Assembly: GCA_050257375.1 (NCBI GenBank)
Contig: JBLMWT010000060.1
Span: 1-58,124 of the forward strand
DNA length: 58,124 nucleotides
Reading direction: 5' to 3'
Source of the DNA: Sphingomonadaceae bacterium
GTDB taxonomy: Bacteria; Pseudomonadota; Gammaproteobacteria; Burkholderiales; SG8-39
Shown: positions 1 through 17,392 of the stretch, piece by piece
Layout of the letters: each line of letters starts with the position of its first letter
Numbering within the stretch: the first letter of the stretch is position 1
Position numbers and translations under genes: made by a program
Notes under the pieces: generated by a model
Seen by the model: only the letters and a program-made list of their open reading frames with translations
The model's database searches: none
Told to the model about the DNA's origin: nothing

Positions 1-2
1 TC

Positions 3-1841
3 GCCTTCGCCGCCGACGGCACGCCCTATTCGACGGCCTACGGCGACGTGTATCACAGCGCCGCGGGCGGCCCCGCGCAGTCGCGCCACGTGTTCCTCGC
101 CGGCAACGGCCTGCCCGGCCGCTGGGCCGGACGACCGGTGTTCACGGTGCTGGAAACCGGCTTCGGCCTGGGGCTCAATCTCCTCGTCACCTGGGCCGCG
201 TGGCGCGCCGACCCGCAGCGCTGCGCGCGGCTGCATTTCGTCTCGGTGGAAAAGCATCCGTTCCGCGGCGCGGATCTCGCGCGGCTGCACGCGCGCTACC
301 CCGAGCTCGCGCCGCTCGCCGCCGAGTTGCGCGCCGCCTGGCCCCTGCTCGTTCCCGGCCTGCACCGGCTCGAATTCGACGGCGGCCGCGTCGTGCTTAC
401 GCTCGCGTTCGCCGACCTGGGCGACGCGCTGCCGCAGCTGCGTCTCGCCGCGGACGCGATCTATCTGGACGGCTTCGCGCCGGCGAAGAACCCCGGGATG
501 TGGTCGCCGCAGGCGCTCAAGGCGCTCGCGCGCCGGGCGGCGCCGGGCGCGAGCGCCGCGACCTGGAGCGCCGCGGGCGCGGTGCGCAGCGCGCTCGAGC
601 AGGCGGGCTTCGAAGTCGAGAAGCGCGCGGGATTCGCCGCCAAGCGCGACATGCTGGTCGCGCGCTACGCGCCGCGCGGGGGGGCGGCGGCTCCGCCCGT
701 CGCGCCGCCCGAGCGCCGCGCGCTGGTGGTCGGCGCGGGCCTCGCCGGCGCGGCAACCTGTGAGCGCCTCGCCGCGCGCGGCTGGGAAGTGACGCTCGTC
801 GAGCGCCGGCGCGAACCGGCGCAGGAGGCCTCGGGCAACCACGCGGGCGTGTTCCACCCGGTGGCGACGCCCGACGACAGCGTGCTCGCGCGCCTGACGC
901 GCGCCGGCTCTCTGTACGCGCTCTCGCGCTGGCGCGCGCTCTCGAGCGCGGCCTGGGCGCCCTGCGGCGTGCTGCAGCTCGCGCGCGACGACGACGAGGA
1001 CGCGGCGCAGCAGCGCGCGCTCGACGCGCTCGGTGCTCCGCGCGAGTATGCGCGCCACGTGACGCGCGCGGAGGCGTCGGAGCTCGCCGGCGCCGAGGTG
1101 GCCAGCGGCGGACTGTGGTTCGGCCCGGCCGGATGGGCGCGCCCGCCCGACCTCGTGCGCGCGCAGATCGCCCATGCGGCGGCCGAGGCCTGCTTCGGCA
1201 TCGAGGTCGCCACGCTCGAGCGCGACGGCGAAACCTGGAGCGCGCGTGACGCGGCGGGCACCCTGATCGCGCGTGCGCCGGTGGTCGTGCTCGCGAACGC
1301 CGCCGACGCGCTGCGCCTCGCTCCCTCGCCGGACATCGCGTTACGCCGCGTGCGCGGCCAGCTGACCCATCTGCCCGCGGAACGCCTGCGCGCGCCGCGG
1401 CTGCCGCTGCTGCGCGGCGGATTCGTACTGCCGGAAGTCGACGGCCTCGTCGTCGCCGGCGCGAGCTACGACTTCGAGGACCCCGATCCCCAGCCGCGCG
1501 CCGAGGGGCATGCCGGCAACCTCGAGCGGCTCGAGCGCATCCTGCCGGGTGCGGCGCGCGGGCTCGATCCCGCGGCGCTCGACGGGCGCGTCGGCTTCCG
1601 CGCGGCGACGCGCGACCGTCTGCCGGTGGTCGGCGCGCTCGCGCCGGGCCTGTATGGCGCGTTCGCCTATGGATCGCGCGGACTGGTGTGGGCGGCGCTC
1701 GCCGCCGAGCTGCTGGCGAGCCTGCTCGAAGGCGAACCGCTGCCGCTTGAGGGAATGCTCGCCGACGCGCTCGATCCGGCGCGCTTTACGCGCCGCCGTT
1801 CATCTCGCCCCTCATCTCGCCCTTCAGCCGACGCGCCATGA
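3..1841 (+). CDS. mnmC: bifunctional tRNA mnm5s2U34 methyltransferase / FAD-dependent cmnm5s2U oxidoreductase MnmC (5' end cut by window edge)
   Basis: The frame of ORF 48..1841 stays open back to base 3 (AFAADGTPYSTAYGDVYHSAAGG). It has an N-terminal SAM-MTase part (LETGFGLGLN, DGFAPAKNPGMWS) followed by a DAO-type FAD domain (VVGAGLAGAA). Confidence 0.88.
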   Translation, partial: AFAADGTPYSTAYGDVYHSAAGGPAQSRHVFLAGNGLPGRWAGRPVFTVLETGFGLGLNLLVTWAAWRADPQRCARLHFVSVEKHPFRGADLARLHARYPELAPLAAELRAAWPLLVPGLHRLEFDGGRVVLTLAFADLGDALPQLRLAADAIYLDGFAPAKNPGMWSPQALKALARRAAPGASAATWSAAGAVRSALEQAGFEVEKRAGFAAKRDMLVARYAPRGGAAAPPVAPPERRALVVGAGLAGAATCERLAARGWEVTLVERRREPAQEASGNHAGVFHPVATPDDSVLARLTRAGSLYALSRWRALSSAAWAPCGVLQLARDDDEDAAQQRALDALGAPREYARHVTRAEASELAGAEVASGGLWFGPAGWARPPDLVRAQIAHAAAEACFGIEVATLERDGETWSARDAAGTLIARAPVVVLANAADALRLAPSPDIALRRVRGQLTHLPAERLRAPRLPLLRGGFVLPEVDGLVVAGASYDFEDPDPQPRAEGHAGNLERLERILPGAARGLDPAALDGRVGFRAATRDRLPVVGALAPGLYGAFAYGSRGLVWAALAAELLASLLEGEPLPLEGMLADALDPARFTRRRSSRPSSRPSADAP

Positions 1842-2607
1842 GGCGCGCGTAGAGCGCCGGCGCAAGGCGGCTGACCCACCACGCGAGGCGGGCGGTGCGA
1901 CCATGAAGCAGCAGGCGCTGTCCGCGGCGCGCTGCACGATAGATGTCCTCGGCCACCGCTTCGGGCGCCGCGCGAGCGCCGACGACCTGCTGCGCGTGGC
2001 GCGCGGGCGCGCCGTCCGCGCCGAGCGCGTTGCGGTCGATCCCGGTGGCGATGAACGCGGGGCATACCAGCAGCACGTCGACGCCGCTGTCGACCAGCTC
2101 GGTGCGCAGGCTGTCGAAGAAACCGTGCAGAGCGTGCTTGCTCGCCGCGTAGCCGGTGCGCGCGATCAGCGGCGAGAACCCGGCCACGCTCGAAATGGCC
2201 ACGATCAGGCCGCGGGTGCGCACGAGGTCGCCGAGCGCGGCGCGCGTGCAGTGAACTGCGCCGAAGAAATTGACCTCCATGACGCGCCGGATCACCGCCG
2301 GCTCGGTCGCCGCGTACGCGCTGCGGTGCGAGATGCCGGCGTTGTTGACCAGCACGTGCACCGGCCCGAGCTGCGCCGAGACGCGCGAAAGCGCCTGCTC
2401 GCACTGCCCGGCGTCGCTGACGTCGCAGGCCAGGCCGAGCGCGCCGCCGCCAATCCGCGCCGCGCCCTGCTCGGCGGCCGCCCCATCGCGATCGAGCAAC
2501 GCCACGCGCGCGCCGCCTGCGGCGAAGCGCGCGGCGAGCGCCTTCCCCAGCCCGCCGGCGGCGCCGGTCACGACGACGACCTTGTCGCGGAAGTCACGCC
2601 GCGCCAC
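1786..2607 (-). CDS. short-chain dehydrogenase/reductase (classical SDR)
   Basis: It has a GTG start and overlaps the upstream gene by 14 nt. Motifs seen are TGAAGGLG (cofactor binding), NNAGI and YAASK (catalytic Tyr-x3-Lys). Confidence 0.85.
   Translation of the reverse strand: MARRDFRDKVVVVTGAAGGLGKALAARFAAGGARVALLDRDGAAAEQGAARIGGGALGLACDVSDAGQCEQALSRVSAQLGPVHVLVNNAGISHRSAYAATEPAVIRRVMEVNFFGAVHCTRAALGDLVRTRGLIVAISSVAGFSPLIARTGYAASKHALHGFFDSLRTELVDSGVDVLLVCPAFIATGIDRNALGADGAPARHAQQVVGARAAPEAVAEDIYRAARRGQRLLLHGRTARLAWWVSRLAPALYARLMARRLKGEMRGEMNGGA
1799..1822. repeat. 12-bp tandem duplication (ttcatctcgccc / ctcatctcgccc, 11/12 identical)
   Basis: Read directly. It lies inside the 56-bp convergent overlap of the mnmC and SDR 3' ends and encodes SSRP-SSRP on + and GEMR-GEMN on -. 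Confidence 0.8.
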
Positions 2608-3547
2608 TGCGACTCCTCGCGCGACGGTAGAGATCGAAGGTCTCGGACGAAGTGAGGCGCGGCGTATAGCCGAAGACCTCTTTCAGGCGCCGGTTGTCGA
2701 GCACCGGCCGGTAGCGCAGAAAGCGCACCTGCTCGGGCCCGTACTGCGACAGTCCGAGCGGCTTCGCCAGCGCGAGCGCGCCGGCGATCGCCCAGGCAGG
2801 GAGCTCGACGCAGGGCTTGCCGAGGCGCGCAGCGATCTCGCGCATGGCGAGCGCGCCGTCGCCCGCGACGTTGAACACTCCCTCGCGTCCCTCCTCCAGC
2901 GCCAGGAGAAGACAGGCGACGACGTCCTGGTCCCAGGCGAACACGAACGGGCTGTCCGCTCCGCGCACCGCGATCAGGCGCGGCTTGTCGAACAGGTCGG
3001 TGATCTGGTTGCGTGTGGTCTCGCCCAGGATGGTGCCCACGCGCAGCACCACCTGCGCCATGCGCGGGTGCGCGGCGCGGTAGCCGGAGAGCATCTCCTC
3101 GACCAAGCGCTTGTGCCAGGCATAGGCGAACTCGCGGTTGCCGCGCAGCGGCTGGTCCTCGTCGATCAGCGGCGGGTTGTCGGCATGGTAGCCGTAGGCG
3201 GCGCCGCTCGAGGTGACGACGAACTTCGCCACGCCGGCCTCGACGCAGGCCTCGAGCACGTTCTTCGTCCCCAGCACGTCGACCGAATATTCGTGCTCGC
3301 GCGAGCTGCGCCTGCCCGGGGTGACGATCGAGGCGAGGTGCGCGACCGCGTCGACGCCGTGCGCGCGCATCACGTCGGCGAGCCCCGGGTCGCGCACGTC
3401 GCGCGCCAGGTATTCGACCCCCTTCAGGCGCGCGACGGCAGGCGGCCCGCGCAGGTCGAGCGCAAGCACCGGCCGCCCGCACCGTGCGAGCTCGGCGACC
3501 AGCAGCCTCCCGAGGTAGCCGCCGGCGCCGGTGACCAGGACCGTCAT
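2594..3547 (-). CDS. NAD-dependent epimerase/dehydratase-fold (extended SDR) protein
   Basis: The start MTVLVTGAGGYLG at 3547 is in frame with ORF 2594..4198 and forms an ATGA overlap with the upstream stop. It carries a GxxGxxG Rossmann motif and YAWHK (Y-x3-K). Confidence 0.85.
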   Translation of the reverse strand: MTVLVTGAGGYLGRLLVAELARCGRPVLALDLRGPPAVARLKGVEYLARDVRDPGLADVMRAHGVDAVAHLASIVTPGRRSSREHEYSVDVLGTKNVLEACVEAGVAKFVVTSSGAAYGYHADNPPLIDEDQPLRGNREFAYAWHKRLVEEMLSGYRAAHPRMAQVVLRVGTILGETTRNQITDLFDKPRLIAVRGADSPFVFAWDQDVVACLLLALEEGREGVFNVAGDGALAMREIAARLGKPCVELPAWAIAGALALAKPLGLSQYGPEQVRFLRYRPVLDNRRLKEVFGYTPRLTSSETFDLYRRARSRSGAA

Positions 3548-4455
3548 GCCGGAGCGAGCAAAGGCGGGCGGCGCGACCAGGTGCCCGCCACGGTCAACCC
3601 CGCGACGATGTGCCAGATCCCCCACCACGCCGTGACCACCGCCATCCCGCCCAGGCCGTCGAAGTAACCGAAGATCAGGATCAGGCCGAGCCCGGAGTTC
3701 TGGATCCCGCACTCGATCGAGACCGCGCGCCGATCGCGCTCGGGCAGTCCCGCGGCGCGCGCCAGGCCGTACCCGGTCGCGAGCGCGAGCGCGTTGTGCA
3801 CGAACACGATGCCGACCACCGTGCCGACGTAGGCGACGAAGTACTGCCAGTTGGCCGCGAGCGCCGCCAGCACGAACACGACGAAGAACCCGAGCGAGAA
3901 GACCTTGAACGGCTTCACCGCGCGCGCGGTGAAGCGCGGAAAGCGGCGCGAGACGAGCAGCCCCGCCGCGAGCGGCGCGCCGAGCAGCAGCAGCACGTGG
4001 GCGAACATCTCGAGGGGGTTGACCGAGACCGCGCGCAGGATCGGCTGCGCCGGCCCGTACAGGCCGCCCCAGAAGGCCACGTTGAGCGGCGTCATGACGA
4101 TCGCGGCGAGCGTCGACAACGTGCTGATCGACACCGACAGCGCGGTGTTGCCGCGCGCGAGATGAGTCAGGAAGTTCGAGATGTTGCCTGCCGGGCACGA
4201 CGACACCAGGATCATGCCGAGCGCGATGCTCGGGCGCGGCTCGAGCGCGAGCACCAGCAGATAGGTCGCGGCCGGAAACACCACGTGGTGGCCGAGCAGG
4301 CCGATCGCCAGCGCGCGCGGCGTGGCGAGCGCCGCCTTGAAGTCGGCGGGCTTGAGCTCGAGCGAAACGCCGAACATCACCAGCCCGAGGATCACGTTCA
4401 GCGCGAGCAGCGTCTGCGGGTTGAAGTTGAGCCGCACCAGGTCGATGTCGCTCAT
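3544..4455 (-). CDS. bile acid:sodium symporter (BASS/SBF, YocS-like) family transporter
   Basis: A 303-aa polytopic membrane protein. The N-terminus LNVILGLVMFGVSLELKPADF and the SSCPAGNISN segment are typical of the SBF family. Confidence 0.82.
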   Translation of the reverse strand: MSDIDLVRLNFNPQTLLALNVILGLVMFGVSLELKPADFKAALATPRALAIGLLGHHVVFPAATYLLVLALEPRPSIALGMILVSSCPAGNISNFLTHLARGNTALSVSISTLSTLAAIVMTPLNVAFWGGLYGPAQPILRAVSVNPLEMFAHVLLLLGAPLAAGLLVSRRFPRFTARAVKPFKVFSLGFFVVFVLAALAANWQYFVAYVGTVVGIVFVHNALALATGYGLARAAGLPERDRRAVSIECGIQNSGLGLILIFGYFDGLGGMAVVTAWWGIWHIVAGLTVAGTWSRRPPLLAPA

Positions 4456-4459
4456 GACG

Positions 4460-6214
4460 CTACTTCCCGGCGGGCTCCTCGTGCATTTTCTTGAAGTGCA
4501 GCAGTCCCGGCGCCCACATGTGCTTCACCGGATCGACGTCGACGTGGATCACCGCGCAGCGGCCCGCGGCCAGGCTGCGCTCGAGCGCCGGCCCGAGTTC
4601 GGCGGGATCGGCGACGCGCTCGCCGTGCGCGCCCATCGCCTCGGCCAGCTTGTCGAAAGCGATCTCGCCCAGGTCGGCCTTGATCGTCTCCTCGGGCCCG
4701 AGCGACTTCATGATCAACGTCTTGAGCGGCCGCAGCATGAACTGCTGGTTCATCTTCACCATGCCCCACTGCCGATCGCACAGCACCAGGTACACCACGC
4801 GCAGCCCGTTGCGGATCGCGGTCTCGATCTCCTGAGGATGAAATCCCATCGCGCCGTCGCCGATGATGCAGCACACCGGGCGCTCCGGGCGCGCGGCCGC
4901 CGCCCCGAGCGCCTGCGCGACGCCGGCGCCGAGCATGCCGAACTTGAAGGTCGATAGCAGCGTGTTCGGCACCCGCACCTGGTGGTAGAACATCGCCCAG
5001 ATCGCCGCGTTGCCGCCGTCGGCGACCAGTACCGCGTCGTCGCCGAACGCCTTCTGGCAGGCGTGCGCGACGTGCGCGGGATTCATTGGCGCGGCGCGGT
5101 CCTCGAGCCGTTTGTCGAGCTCGGCGCGCTCGGCGCGGCGCGCCACGGCGTACTTCGCGACCCTCGCCCTGCGCGGCTCGAGCCGCATCGCGGCGGACCG
5201 TGTTTCGAGGCGCTCGGCGAGCTGCGCGAGGAACACCTTCGCATCTGCGAGCACCGCCAGCGCAGCGGGCTTCGCTGCGCCGAGCGCGGCGCCGTCGACA
5301 TCGACCTGGATCATCTTTTGCCCCGCGGGCGGGCGCCAGTACGGCGCCTTGCCCCACCAGTCGGTCTCGCCCAGCCGCGAGCCCACGCACAGCACCACGT
5401 CGGCGTCGTTGCGCACCTCGTGGTTGAGCTTGACGTGGATCATCGGCACGCACAGCTCGGAAGTCTCGGGCAGCGCGCCGCGCGCGCCCCAGCTGGTGGT
5501 GACCGGCGCGTGCAGCAGCTCGGCCACCCGCGCGAGCTCCGCAAAAGCGCCGGCATGCACCACTCCGCTTCCCGCGTGGACCATCGGCGCCTCGGCCGCG
5601 GTCAGCATCTCGGCGGCGCGCTCGACGTCGCCGGGCGCCGGGTGCGGCGCGCTCGCACGGCGGTATTCGGACGGCGCCCACAGCGCCGGCTCGCCCTTGA
5701 ACGCGCCGTTCATGATGTTCTCCGGCACGTCGAGGTGGACCACGCCGGGACGCCCCTCCCAGCAGGCGCGCAATGCCGCGCGCATGAGCTCGGGAATGCG
5801 CTCGTAGGACGGGGCGGCGCGGCTCCACTTCGCGAACGCGGACACGACGCCGGACTGGTCGAAGCTCTGGTAGGCGCCGGGCCGCTCGGGATAACTCAAT
5901 CCGGTGCGGCGCGCGCTGCTCACGCACAGCACGCGGTTGCCCTCGGCCTGCTCGACCACCAGTCCGGGCAGCACGTTCGCCACCCCCGGGCCGTTCGACG
6001 CCATGCACACGCCGAGCTGGCCGGTCATTCGTGCGTACGCACCCGCCATGTGCGCTGCGCTGGTCTCGTGGCGCGGCGTGACGATATCGATGCCGAGCCG
6101 GTGCAGCGCCGCGTAGAAGCCGAAATAAGTGCCGTCGATGATGCCGAAGACCTTGGTGACGCCTTCGGCCTGCAGCATGCGCGCGATCAGCTCGCCGCCT
6201 GAATGTTCCGCCAT
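4460..6214 (-). CDS. thiamine-pyrophosphate-dependent enzyme (acetolactate synthase / oxalyl-CoA decarboxylase / 2-hydroxyacyl-CoA lyase superfamily; subfamily not assignable)
   Basis: The start MAEHSGGELIARMLQAEGV at 6214 is in frame with ORF 4460..7963. It has an N-terminal Pyr domain (PRHETSAAHMAGAYAR, SNGPGVANV) and a C-terminal GDGAM ThDP/Mg motif. Confidence 0.85.
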   Translation of the reverse strand: MAEHSGGELIARMLQAEGVTKVFGIIDGTYFGFYAALHRLGIDIVTPRHETSAAHMAGAYARMTGQLGVCMASNGPGVANVLPGLVVEQAEGNRVLCVSSARRTGLSYPERPGAYQSFDQSGVVSAFAKWSRAAPSYERIPELMRAALRACWEGRPGVVHLDVPENIMNGAFKGEPALWAPSEYRRASAPHPAPGDVERAAEMLTAAEAPMVHAGSGVVHAGAFAELARVAELLHAPVTTSWGARGALPETSELCVPMIHVKLNHEVRNDADVVLCVGSRLGETDWWGKAPYWRPPAGQKMIQVDVDGAALGAAKPAALAVLADAKVFLAQLAERLETRSAAMRLEPRRARVAKYAVARRAERAELDKRLEDRAAPMNPAHVAHACQKAFGDDAVLVADGGNAAIWAMFYHQVRVPNTLLSTFKFGMLGAGVAQALGAAAARPERPVCCIIGDGAMGFHPQEIETAIRNGLRVVYLVLCDRQWGMVKMNQQFMLRPLKTLIMKSLGPEETIKADLGEIAFDKLAEAMGAHGERVADPAELGPALERSLAAGRCAVIHVDVDPVKHMWAPGLLHFKKMHEEPAGK

Positions 6215-6232
6215 CCCTCTCCCCCTCCCCCC
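6215..6232 (-). promoter_or_regulatory. 18-nt homopurine tract GGGGGGAGGGGGAGAGGG abutting the ATG of the TPP-enzyme gene (extended Shine-Dalgarno)
   Basis: Read directly. The plus strand is an uninterrupted C/T run over 6215..6232. Confidence 0.6.
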
Positions 6233-6258
6233 GTCCTGCCGGGCCGCATTGTATAGGC

Positions 6259-9102
6259 CTAACCGCCGCTCAAGGCCCTGAAGTCGATGCGCGCCGCGGC
6301 CGCATCCGGCTCGCCGGCGCGCGCCAGGATCGCCTCGCGCGCGCGGTCGCGCAGCCGGATCGCGGCATGCCAGTCGTTGCCGTCGGGGCGGATGGGCTCG
6401 CACACCAGTACTTCGAGCCGCCCGGGGCGCGGGAACCAGATGCCGTCCGGCAGCATGCCGCGCGTGCCGCGCATCACGACCGGCACCACCGCGCAGCCCG
6501 CCCGGACCGCCGTCACGAACGCTCCCATGCGAAACGGCAGCAACCCGGGATCGCGCCGCTGCGTGCCTTCCGGGAACACGAGCGGCAACGTTCCCTCGCG
6601 CGCGCGCGCCTCGATCGTCTGGTGGTCTTCGACGCTGCGCGCGACGTCGACGCGCTCGACGAACACGCTGCCCCGGCGCCCGAGCAGCGTGCCGGCGAAG
6701 AATTGCGGAGCGAGCTCGCGCTTGGCGACGAAGGCGATGCGCGGGGGCAGCGCCGCGCTGAGCAGCACGCCGTCGAGATAGCTCGCGTGGTTCGAGATGA
6801 CCACCGCGTTCGGCTCGCGCGCGAGGCGCTCGGCGCCCTCGACGCGCGGCGTCACGCCCCACAGCGCGAACAGCAGCCGCGCTGCGCCGCGCGCGATTCG
6901 GCGCGCACGCGGGGGGTGCCGCGTCGCCGCGATCATCAGCCACGCGGGCAGCATGACGAGGACGAGGCTCGTCCACGCCCAGACGCCCCAGACAAACTCG
7001 CCCGCGCGCGCCAGGGCGCCACGCGCGCGCCCCGCGATGCCCTCGGCCGCGAGCAGCGCGAGCTGCAGCCAGGCCGGACGCGGTGCCGCGACGCCCAGCT
7101 CGCCGCGCTCGTACTGCTCGCGGCAGGCGGCGCGCCGGATCTTGCCGCTCGAAGTCTTGAGCACCGTGCGTGGCGGCGCGAGCACCACCTCGTCGGCCGG
7201 CATCCCGGCCAGATCGACCGCCAGCTGGTTGATATCTGCGACGATGCGCGCGCGCTCCTCGGGTTTCGTCTCGCGCGTCTCGGCGAGAACGACCAGGCGC
7301 TCGGTGCCCGTGCGCCGGTCGCTCGCGGCGAACACGGCGACGCCGCCGTGGCGCACGCCGCGCACCTCGCCGACGGCCTCTTCCAGCTCCATGGGGTGGA
7401 TGTTGTGCCCGGCGCGGATGATCAGGTCCTTTGCGCGCCCGGTGATGAACAGCTCGCCGCCGGCGAGGTAGCCGAGGTCCCCGGTATTTCGCCAGGCGCC
7501 GTCGACGAGGCGCGCGGTCTCCTCCGGATTCTCGAAGTAGCCGCTGGTCGCCGACGGCCCCGCGAACTGCACCCTGCCCTGCGTGCGCTCGCCGAGCTCG
7601 CGCCCGCGCTCGTCGACCACGCGCACCGCGTGGCCGGGCAGCGCACGGCCGCAGGCCACCAGGCGCAGCGGCAGCGGATCGTCCTCGCGCGCCAGGCGCG
7701 CCACGCCGTGGCGCTGGAAGTGCGCGCGGTCGATGCGCTCGACGAGCACGCCGCGTTCGAGCGGCGGGAAGGTGGTGCCCAGGCAGCACTCCGCGAGCCC
7801 GTAGACCGGGGTCATCGCCTCGCGCCTGAAGCCGTAGCGCGCGAAGCGCTCGCAGAAGCGCTCGACCGTGTCCGGGCTCACCGCCTCGGCACCATTGAAC
7901 GACAGCCGCAGCGAGGAGAGGTCCAGTCCGTCGAGCTCTTGCTCGGAGAGCTTCGTCAGGCACAGCTCATAGGCGAAGTTCGGCGCGGACGTCATCGTCC
8001 CGCGATGCTGCTGGACGCGCCGCAGCCAGCGCGCCGGGCGCGACAGGAAGGCGAGCGGCGACATCAGCACGAGCGGGTACGCATACAGCATCGAGCCCAG
8101 GCATGCGCCGATGAGGCCCATGTCGTGGTACAGCGGCAGCCAGGACACAAAGTTGTCCGCGGAGGTGACGCGCGCCGCCGTTCCCATCGCGCGCAGGTTG
8201 GCGAGCAGATTCGCGTGCGTCAGCACCACGCCCTTGGGGCGTCCGGTACTGCCCGAGGTGTACTGCAGGAACGCGGTGTCGCCAGGCAGCGCGCGGTGCG
8301 TCGGGGCCGCACCGTCGGCGGTGAGCACCTCGGCGACCGTCGCCACGTGGCGCAGCGATCCGGCGTGCGCCTGCAGGACGTGGGCGAAGGTCTTCGCCTG
8401 CTCGATGGTGACGAACAGGTGCGCCCCGCAGTTGGCGACGATGCCAGCTATGCGCCGGAAATGCTGCTCGAGCTGCGCTGGGCGGGCCGGCGGATAGAGC
8501 GGCACCGGGACCGCGCCGATGCGCAGCGCGCCGTAGAAAGCGACGAAGAACTCGCGGCTCGTGGGCAGCATGATCGCGACGCGCTCGCCGACAACGACGC
8601 CGCGCGCCGCCAGCCCGGCGCCGAAGGCGCGCGCGGCTTCCGCGAGCGCACCGTAGCTGATCTCCTCGGCTGCGTCGCGCTCGCCGTAGAGCGTGATGTG
8701 CACGCGCTCCGGGTGGCGCTCGGTGTGCCAGTCGAAGGCCTCGAGGAGCGTGCTCACCGATGCGGGCGCCGAATCGACCGCCTCGGCCGCAGGCGCCGGC
8801 GCCGCCCGGGCCGGCGCCGGAGGCTCGGCGGCCGGCGCATGAGCGACGAATGCGAGCAGATCGCGCGGCGTCTCGGCCTCGCTGAACGCCGCCTCCGGAA
8901 GGCGCACGCCCCACGACTGCTCGATGCGAGCCGCGAGCTCGACTCGCGCCAGGCTGTCCAGCCCGTAGTCGCGCTCGAGCGAGTGATCCAGCCCGAGCGT
9001 GTCGACGCGCGTGTCCTGCGGGTGCAGCTCGCGCGCCAAGGCGCGCAGCAACTCGAGCAGCCGCTCGCCGGCGGGATCCTGCCGTGCGTCCGCGGCCTTC
9101 AA
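6259..9102 (-). CDS. tri-domain protein: acyl carrier (PP-binding) + AMP-dependent fatty-acid adenylase/ligase + TM segment + 1-acyl-glycerol-3-phosphate-type (LPLAT/PlsC) acyltransferase
   Basis: Features in order: an ACP-like GLDSL serine near aa 50, an Ala/Pro linker, YTSGSTGRPKGV and SSGKIRR adenylation motifs, the hydrophobic stretch WGVWAWTSLVLVMLPAWLMIAA, then NHASYLD and FPEGT acyltransferase motifs. The only plausible start upstream of the carrier helix is TTG at 9102, which overlaps the prs stop (TTGA). Confidence 0.8.
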   Translation of the reverse strand: MKAADARQDPAGERLLELLRALARELHPQDTRVDTLGLDHSLERDYGLDSLARVELAARIEQSWGVRLPEAAFSEAETPRDLLAFVAHAPAAEPPAPARAAPAPAAEAVDSAPASVSTLLEAFDWHTERHPERVHITLYGERDAAEEISYGALAEAARAFGAGLAARGVVVGERVAIMLPTSREFFVAFYGALRIGAVPVPLYPPARPAQLEQHFRRIAGIVANCGAHLFVTIEQAKTFAHVLQAHAGSLRHVATVAEVLTADGAAPTHRALPGDTAFLQYTSGSTGRPKGVVLTHANLLANLRAMGTAARVTSADNFVSWLPLYHDMGLIGACLGSMLYAYPLVLMSPLAFLSRPARWLRRVQQHRGTMTSAPNFAYELCLTKLSEQELDGLDLSSLRLSFNGAEAVSPDTVERFCERFARYGFRREAMTPVYGLAECCLGTTFPPLERGVLVERIDRAHFQRHGVARLAREDDPLPLRLVACGRALPGHAVRVVDERGRELGERTQGRVQFAGPSATSGYFENPEETARLVDGAWRNTGDLGYLAGGELFITGRAKDLIIRAGHNIHPMELEEAVGEVRGVRHGGVAVFAASDRRTGTERLVVLAETRETKPEERARIVADINQLAVDLAGMPADEVVLAPPRTVLKTSSGKIRRAACREQYERGELGVAAPRPAWLQLALLAAEGIAGRARGALARAGEFVWGVWAWTSLVLVMLPAWLMIAATRHPPRARRIARGAARLLFALWGVTPRVEGAERLAREPNAVVISNHASYLDGVLLSAALPPRIAFVAKRELAPQFFAGTLLGRRGSVFVERVDVARSVEDHQTIEARAREGTLPLVFPEGTQRRDPGLLPFRMGAFVTAVRAGCAVVPVVMRGTRGMLPDGIWFPRPGRLEVLVCEPIRPDGNDWHAAIRLRDRAREAILARAGEPDAAAARIDFRALSGG

Positions 9103-10004
9103 CGCGCAGCGAGCCGTGTGAGCGCCGCCGCGAGCAGCGGCGCGATGCCGATCACCTCGAGGCGCGCCACCGGCGGCACCGGGACGCTGTCGGTGGTCGC
9201 CACGCGCCCGAGGCGCGCCGCGCCGAGGCGCTCGAGCGCCCCGGGGGCAAGCACTGCGTGCACGAACATCGCGTGCACCGACCGGGCGCCCGCGGGGCGC
9301 AGCGCCTCCGCTGCGGCGGCGATCGTCCCGCCGGTGCTCGCCATGTCGTCCAGAATCACGCAGTCGCGCCCTCGCACGTCGCCGAGCACCTCGAGCGCTT
9401 GCGCGACATCGGCGCGCGGGCGCGTCTTGGCGAGCACTGCGAGCGGCGCACCGAGCGCGTTCGCGCAGCGCTGCGCACGCTTCAGGCCGCCCGCGTCGGG
9501 CGACACGATCATCGGGTTGGGCAGCGCCCAGGCGCGCAGCGCCGGCAGCAGGGCCTCGTCGGCGAGCAGGTGCGCGACCGGCATGGGAAAGGCGCTCTCG
9601 AGCGCCGGCGAATGCAGCTCGAGCGCGACCAGCCGGTCGACGCCCGCGGCGGCCAGCAGGCGCGCGGCAAGCTGCGCCGAACGCGGCTCGCCCGGATGCT
9701 TGCGCACGTCCTGGCGCGCATAACCGAAGTACGGCACGAGCGCGGTGATCCGCGCCGCGCCCGCGGTGCGCGCCGCGTCGACCATCAGCGCGAGCGTCAT
9801 CAGGCGCTCGTTGGTCGGCGCGCAGGTCGGCTGCAGGACGTAGAGATCGGCGCCGGCCAGCTCGCCGTCGATGCGCACCCGGGTCTCGCCGTCGGCGAAC
9901 GCCGCAACCGGGCACGGCAGCAGCGGAGCGCCGCAGCGCCGCGCCAACTCGGCGGCGAGCGCGGGATGCGCGTCCCCGGCTAGCACCACGGGCCCGGCGT
10001 TCAT
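9099..10004 (-). CDS. prs: ribose-phosphate pyrophosphokinase (PRPP synthetase) paralog
   Basis: The start MNAGPVV at 10004 forms an ATGA overlap with the upstream stop. It aligns by eye with E. coli Prs (FADGE..V, PYFGYARQD, VSPDAGG, DDMASTGGT). It is not in the usual housekeeping prs gene context. Confidence 0.85.
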   Translation of the reverse strand: MNAGPVVLAGDAHPALAAELARRCGAPLLPCPVAAFADGETRVRIDGELAGADLYVLQPTCAPTNERLMTLALMVDAARTAGAARITALVPYFGYARQDVRKHPGEPRSAQLAARLLAAAGVDRLVALELHSPALESAFPMPVAHLLADEALLPALRAWALPNPMIVSPDAGGLKRAQRCANALGAPLAVLAKTRPRADVAQALEVLGDVRGRDCVILDDMASTGGTIAAAAEALRPAGARSVHAMFVHAVLAPGALERLGAARLGRVATTDSVPVPPVARLEVIGIAPLLAAALTRLAAR

Positions 10005-10672
10005 TCCCGGCTCTCGCTCCCGAGGTAGCGCGTGAACCAGCGTCCGGCGTGGCGCGCCGCCTCTTCGAGCGCACCCGCCTCCGCAAAGAGATGAGTTGCG
10101 CCCGGAATCACCACCAGCTCCTTCACGCCCGCCAGCCGCTTGAGGGCATCGCGGTTCCACTCGAGTACTTGCTCGTCTTTTTCCCCGACGATGAGCAGCG
10201 TCGGCGCCTTCACGCGCGCGAGCGCACCCGCTGCGAGGTCTGGCCTGCCGCCGCGGGAAACCACCGCAGCGACGATCTGCGGCGATTCGGCCGCAGCCCA
10301 CAGCGCCGCGGCGGCGCCGGTGCTCGCGCCGAAATAGCCGAGCGGCAGCGCGGCGGTGAACGCCTGAGCGCGCAGCCAGCGCGCAGCGGCGAGCAGGCGG
10401 GATGCGAGCAGCCCGACGTCGAACACCTTGTCCTGGTCCCTGGCCTCGTCTTCCTCGAGCAGATCGATGAGCAGCGTGGCGAGGCTCAGCCTGCGAAACT
10501 CCTGCGCGACGAAGCGGTTGCGCGGACTGTAGCGCCCGCTGCCGCTGCCGTGGGCGAACGCGATCGCGCCGCGCGCGTGCTCTGGCACGCGCAGCTCGCC
10601 GCGCACCTCGCGTCCGCCGGATGCGATGCTCACTTCCACGACCGTCGGCGGCGGATCGGTCGGACGGCTCAT
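10001..10672 (-). CDS. dienelactone-hydrolase-family alpha/beta hydrolase
   Basis: 223 aa, with HGSGSG, a GASTG nucleophile elbow and a C-terminal GATHLF histidine motif. Confidence 0.78.
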   Translation of the reverse strand: MSRPTDPPPTVVEVSIASGGREVRGELRVPEHARGAIAFAHGSGSGRYSPRNRFVAQEFRRLSLATLLIDLLEEDEARDQDKVFDVGLLASRLLAAARWLRAQAFTAALPLGYFGASTGAAAALWAAAESPQIVAAVVSRGGRPDLAAGALARVKAPTLLIVGEKDEQVLEWNRDALKRLAGVKELVVIPGATHLFAEAGALEEAARHAGRWFTRYLGSESRE

Positions 10673-10724
10673 CGATCGTGCTCCATTTTTTCAGACAACA
10701 TCGCGCAAGGCGCGCCAAATTGAA

Positions 10725-10738
10725 TTGATGAAAATCAA
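10725..10738. promoter_or_regulatory. perfect FNR/Anr/Dnr-type (CRP-FNR family) binding site TTGAT-GAAA-ATCAA
   Basis: Read directly in the 138-bp divergent intergenic region. It matches the FNR consensus TTGAT-N4-ATCAA at 10/10 positions. Its centre is about 59 nt from the hydrolase start and about 79 nt from the Lon-like start. Confidence 0.7.
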
Positions 10739-10810
10739 ACGCCCATCCTTGACGCAAGTCAACCTTACACCCTTTCTCGCCGGCAGACTGAGGGTACGGA
10801 GGCACAAGCG

Positions 10811-13270
10811 ATGAACAAGGCGTCCAAGACCGCGCGGCACGCGCTCGCTCCGTCGGAGTTGCGCTGCACGTGCGACCCCGAACAGTTCGGCTTCAAGACG
10901 ACCGCTGAGCTGGAGGAACTCGGCGAGGCACTGGGGCAGCGGCGCGCGCTCGATGCGATCCGGTTCGGCATCGGCATTCGGCAGGAAGGCTACAACCTGT
11001 TCGCGATGGGCCCCGAAGGCGTAGGACGGCGCAGCGTGGTGCGCCACTTCCTCGAGCAGCAGGCGCCGGCGAGCGAGGTGCCGCCCGACTGGTGCTACGT
11101 ATTCAATTTCGAGACGCCGCACAAGCCGCGCGCGCTGAAGTTCCCGTCGGGGCAAGCGGCGAAGTTCAAGCGCAGCATGCAGCGTCTGGTCGAGGACCTG
11201 CGCGCCGGCATCCCGGCGGCATTCGAGACCGAGGAGTACCGCGCGCGACGGCAGGAGATCGAGAACGCATTCAGCGAGCACCAGGAGCAGGCATTCGGGG
11301 CGATCGGCGAGCGTGCCAAGGAGCAGGGCATCGCGCTGCTGCGCACGCCGGGCGGCTTCGGCTTCGCGCCGATGCGCGAGGACGCGGTGCTCAGCCCGCA
11401 GGAGTTCCACAAGCTGCCCACCTCTGAGCAAAAGCGGCTGGAAGACGCGATCGCCGCCCTGCAGGAAGAGCTCGAAGGGGTGATCCACGAGGTCCCGAAG
11501 TGGCGCCGCGAAGCGCTGCACAAGCTGAGAGAGCTCAACCGCGGCGTCACCAAGACCGCGGTCAACAGCTTGATCGAGGAGCTGAAGGCCGAGTACGAGT
11601 CTCTGCCGCAGGTGCGCGCGTACCTCGGCGCCGTGCAGGAGGACGTGCTCGACCACGCTGAATCCTTTCAGCAGCCCAAGGAAGGCGAGCAGCCGACGCT
11701 GTTCGGCATTCCGCTGCCGCAGGCGGAGAGCGCCGAGCAGCCGCTGCGCCGCTACGCAGTGAACGTGCTGATCGGGCACGAGGATGCCAAGGGCGCGCCG
11801 ATCGTCTTCGAGGACAATCCGACGCACAGCAACCTGACCGGTCGCATCGAGCACATCGCGCAGATGGGCACGCTGGTCACCGACTTCACGCTCATCAAGG
11901 CGGGCGCGCTGCACCGCGCGAACGGCGGCTTCCTCGTGGTCGACGCGCTCAGGCTGCTGATGCAGCCCTTCGCCTACGAAGCGCTCAAGCGCGCGCTGCG
12001 CTCGCACGAGATCCGCACCGAGTCGCTCGGGCAGATGCTCAGCCTGGTGAGCACGGTGTCGCTCGAGCCCGAGCCGATCCCGCTCGACGTGAAGATCGTG
12101 CTCGTGGGACAAAGGCTGCTCTATTACCTCCTGCACGAGCACGACCCGGAGTTCGGCGAGCTGTTCAAGGTGGCGGTCGACTTCGAAGAGGACATGGCGC
12201 GCGACGCGCAGAGCGACCTGCTCTATGCGCGCGTCATCGCCACCATCGCCCGGCGCGAGAAGCTGCGCCCGCTGTCGCGCGCTGCGGTGGCGCGCGTGGT
12301 GGAGCGCGGCGCGCGCGACGCGGGCGACGCCGACAAGGTGTCGGTGCAGATGCGCGGCCTGGCCGACCTGCTGCGCGAGTCCGACTACTGGGCGGGCGTC
12401 AACCGGCGCGACGTGGTCGCCGCCGAGGACGTGCAGCGCGCGATCGACGCGCAACAGGATCGCTCGGGGCGCATCCGCGCGCGCCTGCAGGAAGAGATCC
12501 TGCGCGGCAGGCTGCTGATCGACACCGATGGCGCACGCAGCGGCCAGGTGAATGCGCTCGCGGTAGTGCAGCTCGGTGGCTACGCCTTCGGCGTGCCGCA
12601 CCGCGTCACGGCGCGCACGCGCCTGGGCGGAGGCCGCGTGGTCGACATCGAACGCGAGTCCGAGCTCGGCGGACCCATCCACTCGAAGGGCGTGCTCATC
12701 CTCTCCGGCTTCGTCTCGGGCCGCTATGCCGCAGCCAAGCCGTTGTCGCTCGCCGCGAGCCTGGTGTTCGAGCAAAGTTATGGCGGCGTGGAAGGCGACA
12801 GCGCGTCCTCGGCCGAGCTGTACGCACTGCTGTCGTCGCTCGCGGACACCCCGGTGAAGCAGTCGCTCGCCATCACCGGCTCGGTCAACCAGCACGGCGA
12901 CGTGCAAGCGATCGGCGGCGTGAATGAGAAGATCGAGGGCTTCTTCGACGTCTGCGCGGCGCGCGGGCTGACCGGCGCGCAGGGGGTGCTCATTCCCGAG
13001 TCGAACCGCCGCAACCTCATGCTGCGCCACGACGTGATCGAGGCGGTCGCGAAAGGCAAGTTCCACATCTACGCAGTGTCCACGATCGACCAGGGGATCG
13101 AGATCCTGACCGGCGTGCCGGCGGGCGAGCGTGACGCGACGGGGCAGTTCCCGCCGGGCACGATCAATCACCGGGTCGAGCAGCGCCTGTCGGACTACGC
13201 CGAGCGGCTGCGCACCTTCGGCGCCGCCGGTGCGCCACGCAAGACCTGGCGCAGGGAGCCGCAGAAGTGA
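10811..13270 (+). CDS. Lon-like (LonB/COG1067-type) AAA+ protease homolog
   Basis: 819 aa, with GGAGG 8 nt upstream of the ATG. It has an N-terminal AAA-like region (GPEGVGRRS) and a C-terminal S16 Lon protease domain (GDSASSAELYALLS, GGVNEKIEGFF). Confidence 0.85.
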   Translation: MNKASKTARHALAPSELRCTCDPEQFGFKTTAELEELGEALGQRRALDAIRFGIGIRQEGYNLFAMGPEGVGRRSVVRHFLEQQAPASEVPPDWCYVFNFETPHKPRALKFPSGQAAKFKRSMQRLVEDLRAGIPAAFETEEYRARRQEIENAFSEHQEQAFGAIGERAKEQGIALLRTPGGFGFAPMREDAVLSPQEFHKLPTSEQKRLEDAIAALQEELEGVIHEVPKWRREALHKLRELNRGVTKTAVNSLIEELKAEYESLPQVRAYLGAVQEDVLDHAESFQQPKEGEQPTLFGIPLPQAESAEQPLRRYAVNVLIGHEDAKGAPIVFEDNPTHSNLTGRIEHIAQMGTLVTDFTLIKAGALHRANGGFLVVDALRLLMQPFAYEALKRALRSHEIRTESLGQMLSLVSTVSLEPEPIPLDVKIVLVGQRLLYYLLHEHDPEFGELFKVAVDFEEDMARDAQSDLLYARVIATIARREKLRPLSRAAVARVVERGARDAGDADKVSVQMRGLADLLRESDYWAGVNRRDVVAAEDVQRAIDAQQDRSGRIRARLQEEILRGRLLIDTDGARSGQVNALAVVQLGGYAFGVPHRVTARTRLGGGRVVDIERESELGGPIHSKGVLILSGFVSGRYAAAKPLSLAASLVFEQSYGGVEGDSASSAELYALLSSLADTPVKQSLAITGSVNQHGDVQAIGGVNEKIEGFFDVCAARGLTGAQGVLIPESNRRNLMLRHDVIEAVAKGKFHIYAVSTIDQGIEILTGVPAGERDATGQFPPGTINHRVEQRLSDYAERLRTFGAAGAPRKTWRREPQK

Positions 13271-13917
13271 CGCTCAAGCGCATCGTCGTCGGCATCGATC
13301 CGCGGCCGCAGGACCGCGCGGCACTCGAGGCCGCGGCACAGCTCGCCGGCCGCTTGCAGGCGGAATGGGTGGGGCTTTTCGTCGAGGACATCGATCTGCT
13401 GCACCTCGCGGCCCTGCCCTTCGCGCGCGAGATCGGTTTTCCTTCGGCGAGAGCGCGCGCGCTCGACATCGAGGCAATGGAGCGCTCCTTGCGCGCGCTC
13501 GCCGGCGACATCGAGCGCACCATGGCGGCGATCGCCGCGCGCGCGCCCGTGCCGTGGTCGTTCCGCGTCACGCGCGGCGCGCTCATGCGCGAGCTGCGCG
13601 AGGCGGCCGCTCCGGGCGACATCGTGGTGACCGGCGCGCTCGGCCTCAGCCTGGCCCCGCCGCTCTCGGTGCTGTGCTCGGCGTCGACGCCGCCCGAGGC
13701 GGTCGTACCGGCGGCAGCGGCGCTCGCGCGCTCCGTCGGCCGCCGCGTGGAGATCGTGCTGCTCTACGGTGACGACGAAGCGGCGCGACGCTGGGAGGAG
13801 GCGGCGCGCGCTTTACTCGCGGCGCAGGGCGGCCGCCTCGAACTGCGCCTTGCGCCCGCGGATCGGGCGAGGGACGAGAAGCGAACGAAGGGAGGGTCGG
13901 CACGTGGCAATCGGTGA
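13267..13917 (+). CDS. universal-stress-protein-like protein
   Basis: The GTG start overlaps the Lon-like stop (GTGA). The N-terminal half resembles a USP fold (IVVGIDPRPQDRAALEAAAQLAGRL..., GDIVVTGALG). The C-terminal part cannot be assigned. Confidence 0.5.
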   Translation: MTLKRIVVGIDPRPQDRAALEAAAQLAGRLQAEWVGLFVEDIDLLHLAALPFAREIGFPSARARALDIEAMERSLRALAGDIERTMAAIAARAPVPWSFRVTRGALMRELREAAAPGDIVVTGALGLSLAPPLSVLCSASTPPEAVVPAAAALARSVGRRVEIVLLYGDDEAARRWEEAARALLAAQGGRLELRLAPADRARDEKRTKGGSARGNR

Positions 13918-14362
13918 GATCTGCAATCGCGAGGTCGTGTTCGCCAGGGCGAACGAGAGCGTGCTCTCCGCGGCGCTGCTGATGCGCGAGCATCACGTCG
14001 GCAGCCTGGTGGTGATCGAGGAGTCCGCCGGCAGGCGTGTTCCGGCCGGCGTGCTGACCGACCGCGACATCGCGGTCGGCGTGGTCGCTCTCGGCTTGGA
14101 CCCCGCGGCGACCCTGGTCGGCGCCGTGATGGGCCCGGAAGTGGTCGTCGTGCGCGAGGACGCGGGCGTGGCCGACACCGTCGCGCTGATGCGGCAGAAG
14201 GGCCTGCGCCGCCTGCCGGTAGTGGACCGTGCGGGCGGGCTGGTGGGCCTGGTCGCGGCCGACGACCTGCTCGAGCTTTTGGCCGAGGAGATGGGCGGCC
14301 TCGCCGCCATCGTGGCGCGCGAGCAGCGGCGCGAAACCGAGCAGCGGCGCGCGCTACCCTGA
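13904..14362 (+). CDS. CBS-domain pair protein, similar to M. tuberculosis hypoxic response protein 1 (Rv2626c)
   Basis: GTG at 13904 is preceded by GAAGGGAGGG. GVLTDRDIAVGVVALGLDPAATLVG resembles the remembered Hrp1 segment GMLTDRDIVIKGLAAGLDP. A second CBS repeat is RRLPVVDRAGGLVGLV. Confidence 0.8.
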   Translation: MAIGEICNREVVFARANESVLSAALLMREHHVGSLVVIEESAGRRVPAGVLTDRDIAVGVVALGLDPAATLVGAVMGPEVVVVREDAGVADTVALMRQKGLRRLPVVDRAGGLVGLVAADDLLELLAEEMGGLAAIVAREQRRETEQRRALP

Positions 14363-15781: not shown

Positions 15782-16524
15782 CAGCCGCGCTCCTCGCCGG
15801 CGAGCATCTCGGCGATGTGCAGCACGCGCGTGCGCTCGTCGCCGCGGCGCCGCAGCCGCCCCTCGATGTTCAGCATGCAGCCCAGGTCGCCCAGCACCAC
15901 GGCGTCGGCGCCCGAGGCGGCGATGTTCTCGCACTTCGCTTCGGCGATCGCGGCCGCGACGTCGCCGAATTTGATCGAGAATGTGCCGCCGAAGCCGCAG
16001 CATTCCTCGCAATTCTTCATTTCCTTGAGTGCAACGCCGGGCATGCCTGCGAGCAACCGGCGCGGCTGCTGCTTGACGCCCAGCTCGCGCAGACCCGAGC
16101 ACGAGTCGTGGTAGGTGACGGTGCCGCGGAAATCACCCGGCACGCGATCCAGCCGCGCCACGTTCACCAGGAAATCGGTGAGCTCCCAGGTCTTCGCCGC
16201 GAGACGATCCACGCGTTCGAGCCAGGCGCCTTCGCCCGCGAAAATATCGGGGTAGTGCTGCTTGATCATACCCGCGCACGAACCCGAGGGCACCACCACG
16301 TAGTCGAAACCCTCGAATTCCGCGATCAGCTTTTCCGCGAGCGAGCGCGCCGAGCCGCGCTCGCCGGAGTTCCAGCCGGGCTGGCCGCAGCAGGTCTGCG
16401 TGGCGGGCACCTCGACGACGAAACCAGCCTGCTCGAGCAGCTTCAGCGCTGCGAACCCGATGCGCGGCCGCATCATGTCCACGAGGCAAGTGACGAACAG
16501 ACCGACGCGGCGTCCTGTGCTCAT
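15781..16524 (-). CDS. lutA: lactate utilization protein A (LutA/LldE/YkgE, CCG-domain Fe-S oxidoreductase)
   Basis: 247 aa, with VGLFVTCLVD, CCGQPGWNSG and CCGFGGTF cysteine-rich motifs. Confidence 0.9.
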   Translation of the reverse strand: MSTGRRVGLFVTCLVDMMRPRIGFAALKLLEQAGFVVEVPATQTCCGQPGWNSGERGSARSLAEKLIAEFEGFDYVVVPSGSCAGMIKQHYPDIFAGEGAWLERVDRLAAKTWELTDFLVNVARLDRVPGDFRGTVTYHDSCSGLRELGVKQQPRRLLAGMPGVALKEMKNCEECCGFGGTFSIKFGDVAAAIAEAKCENIAASGADAVVLGDLGCMLNIEGRLRRRGDERTRVLHIAEMLAGEERG

Positions 16525-16545
16525 GGCAGGGCGGAGGATAGCACT

Positions 16546-16556: not shown

Positions 16557-16594
16557 GATAGAATTCCCGACTCTCTCGCACGCGCACGCCGCCC

Positions 16595-17386: not shown

Positions 17387-17392
17387 TCCCCC

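Follow-up and report, generated by a model that had tools for sequence, protein, structure and literature searches.

A 58,124-nt stretch of DNA from Sphingomonadaceae bacterium (GenBank assembly GCA_050257375.1, contig JBLMWT010000060.1; Burkholderiales, SG8-39 in GTDB), referred to here as the window, carries an array of seven tightly packed genes on its minus strand. They encode a DLH-family hydrolase, a Prs paralogue, a tri-domain protein made up of an acyl carrier protein (ACP), a fatty acyl-AMP ligase (FAAL) and a lysophospholipid acyltransferase (LPLAT) domain, and four proteins of what we call the cassette: a thiamine diphosphate (ThDP)-dependent enzyme (gene TPP), a BASS-family symporter, an epimerase-fold oxidoreductase (Epi) and a classical short-chain dehydrogenase/reductase (SDR). 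We hold, with rather better than even confidence, that the array is read as one FNR-driven transcript and is a recent, lineage-specific evolutionary mosaic of three separately inherited and independently working modules, which serve stress, Aas-like re-esterification of lipids and the conversion of an organic anion, respectively. The sequence-only reading of this DNA had proposed a single seven-gene pathway built around the tri-domain protein. This proposal did not survive the neighbourhood analysis, which rejected a conserved seven-gene cluster. An alignment scan of GTDB species genomes found at least 599 stretches encoding a relative of the tri-domain protein; among the best 80, whose neighbourhoods were examined, none had TPP, epimerase or SDR genes within 10 kb. 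Conversely, the tri-domain gene was present upstream at 2 of the 48 cassette loci with enough upstream sequence. The neighbourhood is not conserved beyond close relatives, and DLH-Prs is missing even in five of the six visible relatives from the clade of the window. Recognition of the mosaic prevents a wrong pathway annotation and turns the problem into two tractable questions.

The gene array and its divergent promoter region

All seven minus-strand frames gave clean translations with a single terminal stop codon each, and the layout of overlaps and gaps was exactly as first noted (Table 1). Overlaps of 4 nt join DLH to prs (10001-10004), prs to the tri-domain gene (9099-9102) and the BASS gene to the epimerase gene (3544-3547). 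The epimerase and SDR genes overlap by 14 nt (2594-2607), an overlap found identically in two relatives (L081 and L171; L-numbers denote the compared loci), and a gap of 4 nt separates the TPP gene from the BASS gene (4456-4459). Raw open reading frame lists were crowded because the G+C content of the window is about 69% overall. A gene call based on G+C at third codon positions (GC3) picked the same seven frames and differed in the start of DLH (GTG 10639 versus ATG 10672). The ATG start gives a protein of the same length as the called orthologue in L082, and the TTG start of the tri-domain gene falls in the same alignment column as the N-termini of 16 homologues.

Table 1 Features of the array and its surroundings in the window
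Feature	Coordinates	Strand	Remarks
DLH-family alpha/beta serine hydrolase, 223 aa	10672-10001	-	first array gene; ATG start
Prs paralogue (ribose-phosphate diphosphokinase), 301 aa	10004-9099	-	ATG start; TIGR01251 match
Tri-domain protein ACP-FAAL-LPLAT, 947 aa	9102-6259	-	TTG start
Tri-domain/TPP spacer, 44 nt	6215-6258	-	purine-rich ribosome-binding stretch GGGGGGAGGGGGAGAGGG; module 2/module 3 junction
ThDP enzyme, 584 aa	6214-4460	-	TPP_enzyme_N/M/C; first cassette gene
BASS/SBF-family organic-anion:cation symporter, 303 aa	4455-3544	-	Pfam SBF
Epimerase/3-beta-HSD-fold extended-SDR NAD(P) oxidoreductase, 317 aa	3547-2594	-	Epimerase/3Beta_HSD
Classical SDR, 273 aa	2607-1786	-	NF004825/PRK06181 family; adh_short; GTG start; last array gene
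mnmC	3-1841	+	convergent downstream boundary of the array; overlaps SDR 3' end by 56 nt
Proximal FNR/Anr-type palindrome	10725-10738		TTGATgaaaATCAA; zero mismatches to TTGAT-N4-ATCAA
Distal FNR-type palindrome	10749-10762		TTGACgcaaGTCAA; 2 mismatches to TTGAT-N4-ATCAA
LonC-like AAA protease	10811-13270	+	divergent
Hypothetical protein, 216 aa	13267-13917	+	USP-like N-terminus
CBS-pair protein	13904-14362	+	
lutB	15781-14354	-	TIGR00273, 446.8 vs 444.8
lutA	about 16524-15781	-	
IclR regulator	16595-17386	+	

No terminator-like site was found on the minus strand inside the array, and the predicted folding of the 44-nt spacer was no stronger than that of shuffled sequence (z = 0.45). A spacer of 44-47 nt lies at the same place in L081, L170, L171 and L175. 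The same four loci show the mnmC boundary; the convergent overlap of mnmC and SDR (1786-1841 in the window) measures 35-41 nt in relatives, which leaves no room for a terminator between the two genes. An Rfam search of positions 1-20000 returned no riboswitch and no other element. The hairpin-free spacer and the FNR box at the head of the operon, both pointed out by the sequence-only reading, were confirmed, and all of its domain assignments were borne out by the Pfam and NCBIfam scan.

DLH and the LonC-like gene diverge from a 138-nt region which holds both palindromes, their centres 24 bp apart. Besides these two, the 58,124 bases contain no TTGA-N6-TCAA site; 0.15 sites would be expected, and none of 100 shuffled sequences reached two. 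The centre of the proximal palindrome (10731.5) is 59.5 nt upstream of the DLH ATG, that of the distal one 55.5 nt upstream of the LonC-like ATG, and both ATGs are preceded by a GGAG-type ribosome-binding site. The distances are compatible with short leaders at a class II FNR/Anr promoter and, together with the ribosome-binding sites, fit two back-to-back class II promoters. The single transcription unit would start at one of them, a class-II-type FNR/Anr promoter lying back-to-back with the LonC-like protease operon. L082, an 85%-identical relative, has a box at the position of the proximal one (TTGATctccGTCAA), and the L090 box (TTGATcccgGTCAA), about 58 nt from the LonC ATG, is the equivalent of the distal palindrome. 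No FNR box accompanies the tri-domain and cassette genes of L081, and a box was present at 1 of 84 cassette loci; FNR control was therefore rejected both as a property of the tri-domain gene plus cassette in relatives and as a property of the cassette itself.

The element TTGAT-N4-ATCAA is recognised by many members of the CRP/FNR family, so that the palindromes might be bound by a member which senses cAMP, nitric oxide or redox state (Dnr/NnrR/CRP type) in place of oxygen. The window has no gene for such a regulator, and a cNMP-binding regulator adjoins the comparable locus L173. We nevertheless judge a non-oxygen regulator highly improbable, since the LonC, CBS, USP-like, DLH and Prs content matches low-oxygen or dormancy gene sets, related islands elsewhere combine an HPF-cold-shock fusion with Usp, and the lxa locus of Burkholderia has the same core motif (PMC3721108). 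In Burkholderia, a low-oxygen regulon is headed by the motif TGA-N6-TCA (PMC3721108).

It is also quite improbable, in our estimate, that the array is split into two transcripts, with the FNR promoter driving DLH-Prs (and LonC) only and the genes from the tri-domain gene to SDR being read from an internal promoter outside oxygen control. Promoters ahead of the tri-domain gene do exist in relatives, given the intergenic regions at that place in L171 (105 nt, next to IclR) and L090 (next to LonC); loci which have the cassette only must have a promoter before the TPP gene, and a TACAAT-like element is present within the 44-nt spacer. Only 14 nt, however, separate this element from the best −35-like hexamer, and a promoter consensus scan, which detects strong sigma-70 sites only, found no sigma-70-like match in 1500-11000. 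Moreover, the coding strand has no terminator-like site, and the 4-nt overlap of prs with the tri-domain gene leaves no intergenic space. In L081, L170 and L175 the tri-domain gene is likewise joined to its upstream gene by a 1-19-nt gap; because the tri-domain gene and the genes following it have no promoter space of their own in these loci, transcription from the DLH promoter would be their simplest source in the window.

Conservation and arrangement of the modules

The arrangements in the clade of the window differ upstream of the tri-domain gene. In L081, L170 and L175, an IclR gene diverges from lutA-lutB-Tri-TPP-BASS-Epi-SDR, which is followed by convergent mnmC, and lutB ends 1-19 nt before the tri-domain gene. 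In L171, IclR diverges directly from Tri-TPP-BASS-Epi-SDR across the 105-nt region, and in L090 LonC diverges from Tri-TPP-BASS-Epi. L082 and the window have CBS-hyp-LonC diverging from DLH-Prs between lutB and the tri-domain gene; L082 is the one relative with DLH-Prs, which is absent from L081, L170, L171, L175 and L090. Since several relatives have lutAB or the IclR region at this place, the DLH-Prs/LonC block either entered between lutB and the tri-domain gene in the sublineage of the window or was lost from those relatives. Judged from these arrangements, the block of about 4.6 kb is a separable unit with its own bidirectional FNR-type promoter, and lutA-lutB with IclR (14354-17386) would be the ancestral upstream context of the tri-domain gene. 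The complete LonC-hyp-CBS trio occurs in L082 as well, and LonC with an FNR box in L090. No horizontal-transfer signal was seen, as G+C and GC3 of the individual genes show no clear contrast between the modules. Further upstream, the window has a beta-oxidation-type cluster (21599-28421) of TetR, an 814-aa FadE-like acyl-CoA dehydrogenase, a thiolase, a 643-aa FadB-like bifunctional enzyme and a hotdog thioesterase; synteny with L081, L170 and L171 covers its TetR and acyl-CoA dehydrogenase genes, and with L171 the thiolase gene as well.

All visible members of the clade retain the five-gene core Tri-TPP-BASS-Epi-SDR, down to 71% identity of the tri-domain protein, and from the locus arrangements in close relatives the core is stable in one Burkholderiales clade. 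Both cassette loci with the tri-domain gene upstream belong to this clade, as their TPP identity of at least 92% indicates; at the next-closest cassette, L092 (79% TPP identity), a LuxR-type gene and no tri-domain gene is found upstream.

The stability of the core raises the question of whether the five genes form a coupled pathway, in which the cassette would make or modify a hydroxylated small molecule or lipid head group and the tri-domain protein would acylate it; an example of a product would be an acyloin or diol, formed by ThDP-dependent carboligation and reduction and acylated with a self-activated fatty acid. In the window, L081, L090, L170, L171 and L175 the five genes adjoin one another, with junctions that overlap or measure 44-47 nt, and the closest solved relatives of the ThDP enzyme include the acyl-CoA-dependent enzymes HACL and OXC. 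Acyl-handling genes also follow the cassette elsewhere: a same-strand block of DUF2505, WS/DGAT, DUF3047 and acyl-CoA synthetase genes in 7 of 21 long loci, all of one lineage (the Lysobacterales type), which could represent a non-homologous pair that activates and O-acylates, and a 4HBT thioesterase gene directly after the cassette in three loci of another lineage. On the other side, acyl-handling neighbours are absent from most cassette loci, and the WS/DGAT association is confined to that lineage. The tri-domain gene and the cassette were joined in a single event within one clade, and a junction that arose once says little by itself. The 80 other tri-domain loci, none of which has the TPP, epimerase or SDR genes, and the 46 of 48 cassette loci that are without the tri-domain gene argue against coupling, and the LPLAT domain gives generic AGPAT matches only. 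We therefore regard the coupled pathway as doubtful.

Returning to the mosaic interpretation, the tri-domain family is widely distributed. The best 80 of the at least 599 loci, with identities of 43-57%, come from Beta-, Gamma- and Alphaproteobacteria, Desulfobacterota, Actinomycetota (including a Rhodococcus isolate), Nitrospira, Acidobacteriota and Entotheonella. As a rule the gene is solitary. Unsupervised clustering of the open reading frames flanking the 80 tri-domain genes revealed no common neighbour, and a weak BASS match was found near one of them. Genes of the dormancy set (phosphoribosyltransferase (PRTase), DLH, HPF fused to a cold-shock domain (HPF-CSD), or LonC) lie within 10 kb at 10 of the 80 loci, in unrelated taxa, versus none of 86 cassette-only control loci (Fisher p = 5e-4, for a rough control which compares genome contigs with metagenome contigs of differing taxa and lengths). 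At 7 of 77 loci FNR-type boxes stand near the tri-domain gene start, with about 1.4 expected. On these two counts the recurrent partner of the tri-domain gene is the stress set and not the cassette, and the gene accompanies hypoxia or dormancy genes in many lineages.

The cassette, too, occurs independently. A metagenome scan with the ThDP enzyme gave at least 512 confirmed stretches, and TPP-BASS-Epi-SDR stand in this order on one strand in 38 of the 47 metagenome loci with 3.6 kb or more downstream; the same arrangement is shown in metagenome-assembled genomes of Burkholderiales and Lysobacterales. Most cassette loci have the BASS gene next after TPP, whose most constant partner is the epimerase gene (70 of 88 loci). 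The surroundings vary (TauE, AraC, LuxR, MCP, acyl-CoA dehydrogenase, PCC and others). Since the neighbours differ from locus to locus, the cassette, which includes its own transporter, behaves autonomously.

Apart from the roughness of the Fisher control and the restriction of the promoter scan to strong sites, several points weigh against a mosaic read from one FNR promoter. The five-gene core kept throughout the clade could mean functional coupling instead of hitch-hiking, and the WS/DGAT block and 4HBT genes beside the cassette in other loci point in the same direction. Weaker internal promoters may be present inside prs or in the 44-nt spacer. A tblastn search of the window with the E. 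coli FNR sequence detected no FNR-family gene, so the regulator of the palindromes is one that we infer. Finally, an MFS gene adjoins the tri-domain gene in about 10 of the 80 loci and in L172; its identification as LplT was rejected because its product has no NCBIfam match.

Predicted functions of the three modules

The DLH protein matches Pfam DLH and Peptidase_S9, and the GASTG, D and H motifs of a serine-hydrolase triad are present in its translation. Its closest solved relative is PDB 2o2g (219 bits), a structural-genomics entry of unassigned function named 'dienelactone hydrolase'. The Prs paralogue consists of Pribosyltran_N and Pribosyltran, has the phosphoribosyl diphosphate (PRPP) loop DDMASTGGT and a KTRPR motif, and scores 290.1 bits with TIGR01251 (cut-off 113), falling just under the more specific NF002320 (289 vs 297). 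Paralogues of 66-73% identity are common; one 93%-identical homologue is labelled 'Burkholderiales bacterium'. On the other side of the promoter region, the 216-aa gene shares its first 4 nt with the end of LonC and its last 14 nt with the start of the CBS gene. The 216-aa protein begins with the USP-like N-terminus IVVGIDP and has no Pfam or NCBIfam match.

Genes of this kind recur together in other genomes. In L176 and L177 a Prs paralogue belongs to an island with a PRTase-DLH pair, the HPF-cold-shock fusion, Usp, malic enzyme and glycogen phosphorylase, and the DLH beside the PRTase in L176 is 54% identical to that of the window. L173 has a Prs paralogue at a distance of 3.4 kb from a tri-domain homologue, near the cNMP-binding regulator. 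By analogy with such sets, DLH-Prs together with the LonC-like, USP-like and CBS genes probably form a low-oxygen or dormancy-type stress block, and module 1 would supply PRPP and proteostasis functions under low oxygen or in dormancy. We also observed that L176 (184-10771) and L177 have the appearance of a betaproteobacterial 'dormancy island', in which the HPF part of the fusion is of the S30AE type and the PRTase and DLH genes are adjacent; this pair presumably corresponds to a split form of the mycobacterial Rv0571c architecture.

The tri-domain protein has the Pfam order PP-binding, AMP-binding, Acyltransferase. The carrier serine is Ser50 in the GLDSL motif of the ACP domain, a single transmembrane helix spans residues 706-727, and the LPLAT/AGPAT blocks read NHASYLD and FPEGT. 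The DSL serine, YTSGSTGRPKG (A3), HX4D, EGT and the one transmembrane helix are invariant in the family. The best model for the adenylation domain is NF006624 'fatty acyl-AMP ligase' (432 bits, below the whole-protein cut-off of 600), and its best PDB matches are FAALs (3pbk with 308 bits, 3kxw, FadD32). Its closeness to FAALs, and not to acyl-CoA ligases, together with the fused carrier domain marks it as a predicted FAAL. The C-terminal domain qualifies as LPLAT/AGPAT by PF01553 (95.8 bits vs 23), HX4D and EGT, and the membrane anchor; its matches are generic AGPAT ones, with the PlsC, OlsA and YihG models remaining below their cut-offs. The literature search on FAAL-LPLAT fusions gave a passing mention only, in a FAAL review in which lysophospholipid-acyltransferase fusions are named as uncharacterised (PMC8460268).

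From this domain content, we propose that the protein is a membrane-anchored, self-contained enzyme, the FAAL domain of which would adenylate a free fatty acid. The acyl group would be loaded without coenzyme A (CoA) onto the phosphopantetheine arm of its own N-terminal ACP, and, on the inner side of the membrane, the C-terminal LPLAT domain would esterify it onto a lyso-glycerolipid or a comparable acceptor with a hydroxyl group. The net reaction would be an Aas-like re-acylation of lipids by one polypeptide, leading from free fatty acids to membrane lipids independently of CoA. That the gene repeatedly stands next to FNR boxes and dormancy genes suggests that its product helps to maintain lipids when oxygen is limiting, which would parallel the hypoxia-induced acyltransferases of mycobacteria.

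The ThDP enzyme of the cassette is 72-75% identical across Burkholderiales, Lysobacterales, Steroidobacteraceae and Myxococcota, with all members about 584 aa long. Conservation of 70-75% across orders points to a strongly selected small-molecule conversion. Its best PDB matches are BbmA (214 bits), 2-hydroxyacyl-CoA lyase (HACL)/OXC (185) and acetolactate synthase (ALS, 181), and it is roughly equidistant from the BbmA, HACL/OXC, ALS and glyoxylate carboligase (Gcl) structures. Assignment to a named family was rejected, with scores of 281 vs 538 for ALS, 268 vs 676 for Xsc, 228 vs 791 for Gcl and 213 vs 600 for HACL; the best model is PRK08266 'hypothetical protein' (297 bits vs a cut-off of 571). 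GETDWWG, CD[RK]QWGM and a 30-residue C-terminal tail are invariant in the family, CD[RK]QWGM replacing the NN that usually ends the GDG-X26 cofactor motif of ThDP enzymes. The replacement and the invariant tail are possible markers of a distinct reaction type. The epimerase-fold protein has the GxxGxxG and YxxxK motifs; it was rejected as a thioester reductase (TIGR01746, 34 bits vs 213) and as OleD, HpnA or SdmB, all far below the cut-offs. The SDR scores 283.5 bits with NF004825 (cut-off 215). Literature searches on BbmA and on the four-gene combination yielded nothing usable.

The organic anion that the cassette would import is probably a 2-oxo acid, a 2-hydroxy acid or a related carboxylate, and it would be processed by one ThDP-dependent formation or cleavage of a C-C bond and two NAD(P)-dependent redox steps. 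Divergent AraC-type regulators at nine cassette loci suggest that the conversion of the imported anion is induced by the substrate. The ancestral link to lutAB, a 2-hydroxy-acid oxidase, and to IclR in the clade of the window is compatible with 2-oxo or 2-hydroxy acid chemistry. Readings of the cassette as a sulfonate, steroid or branched-sugar (YerE-like) system found anecdotal support only (TauE at 19 of 74 loci, a sulfotransferase, annotations of the 3-beta-HSD type) and were not adopted.

Some cassette loci have particular features. The WS/DGAT block after the cassette is seen on Lysobacterales-type contigs L088 (4753-17375), L094, L099, L109 and L113. Trehalose genes (otsB, GH15 and otsA) precede the cassette in L088/L113 and L109, and close by on the opposite strand, L088 and several related loci have genes for TauE, a methyltransferase, a sulfotransferase and a class IV aminotransferase; L088-like regions may be glycolipid or sulfolipid clusters. 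At eight loci a second, ALS-like ThDP enzyme (578 aa; L137 8252-9988) is encoded directly upstream of the cassette ThDP gene, in seven of them on the same strand as the cassette. In L170 the ThDP gene is in two pieces (211 + 374 aa, 11874-13630) and the epimerase gene is shortened (14543-15409), which may reflect frameshifts, assembly errors or decay of the cassette.

A more far-reaching idea would unite modules 2 and 3. The tri-domain protein and the cassette might make an undescribed acylated lipid or acyl-metabolite under oxygen limitation, such as a fatty acid esterified to a ThDP-derived acyloin or diol head group; the Lysobacterales-type relatives would make an analogue by means of WS/DGAT and acyl-CoA synthetase, and ACP-FAAL-LPLAT proteins would separately constitute a widespread CoA-independent family for lipid remodelling linked to hypoxia or dormancy. 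We put this forward as a speculative proposal and think it unlikely. Whatever their connection, ACP-FAAL-LPLAT in many phyla and the cassette represent two large, conserved and unstudied families.

Comparison with known systems

The sequence-only reading could not map the array onto any named pathway, and this statement stands in so far as no enzyme of the array reaches a functionally named NCBIfam cut-off, except for the generic Prs subfamily and 'SDR family oxidoreductase'. Its exclusion of an Aas-type function was correct for family membership only. The Aas models PRK08633, PRK06814 and PRK08043 gave 166, 139 and 30 bits (vs 1221, 1349 and 886), and the domain order is acyltransferase-adenylase in Aas and ACP-adenylase-acyltransferase in the tri-domain protein. 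The dismissal was not justified at the level of mechanism, where an Aas-like logic is the most economical one for ACP-FAAL-LPLAT. Like E. coli Aas, the protein combines a fatty-acid-activating domain of the ANL superfamily with an HX4D-type LPLAT in one membrane protein, and the acyl group would similarly pass through a phosphopantetheine thioester and not through CoA. The MFS genes adjacent to some tri-domain genes recall the lplT-aas arrangement, although the MFS protein gives no LplT match. In contrast to Aas, the tri-domain protein has its own fused ACP and a FAAL-type adenylation domain.

ElbD of Myxococcus xanthus is reportedly an ether-lipid enzyme of the order CoA-ligase-ACP-reductase-AGPAT. 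The tri-domain protein shares with it, on this account, the combination of fatty-acid adenylation, a carrier and an AGPAT-type acyltransferase in one polypeptide for a CoA-independent assembly of lipids, whereas it lacks the reductase domain and has its ACP at the N-terminus.

The stress block resembles the lxa locus of Burkholderia cenocepacia, likewise from a betaproteobacterium, where stress genes are headed by the Anr/Fnr-type motif TGA-N6-TCA (PMC3721108). The combination of USP-like, protease and nucleotide-precursor functions is shared with the lxa locus and the mycobacterial DosR regulon (PMC3721108). The gene content of these systems overlaps with that of the window only partly, DLH, CBS and acyltransferase genes not being mentioned in the searched parts of PMC3721108.

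Finally, the ThDP enzyme of the cassette has the TPP_enzyme_N/M/C fold, the catalytic Glu50 and the GDG ThDP motif in common with ALS, glyoxylate carboligase, 2-hydroxyacyl-CoA lyase and BbmA. It differs from all of them in having CD[RK]QWGM in place of NN, GETDWWG and the invariant C-terminal tail, and in its fixed BASS-epimerase-SDR context.

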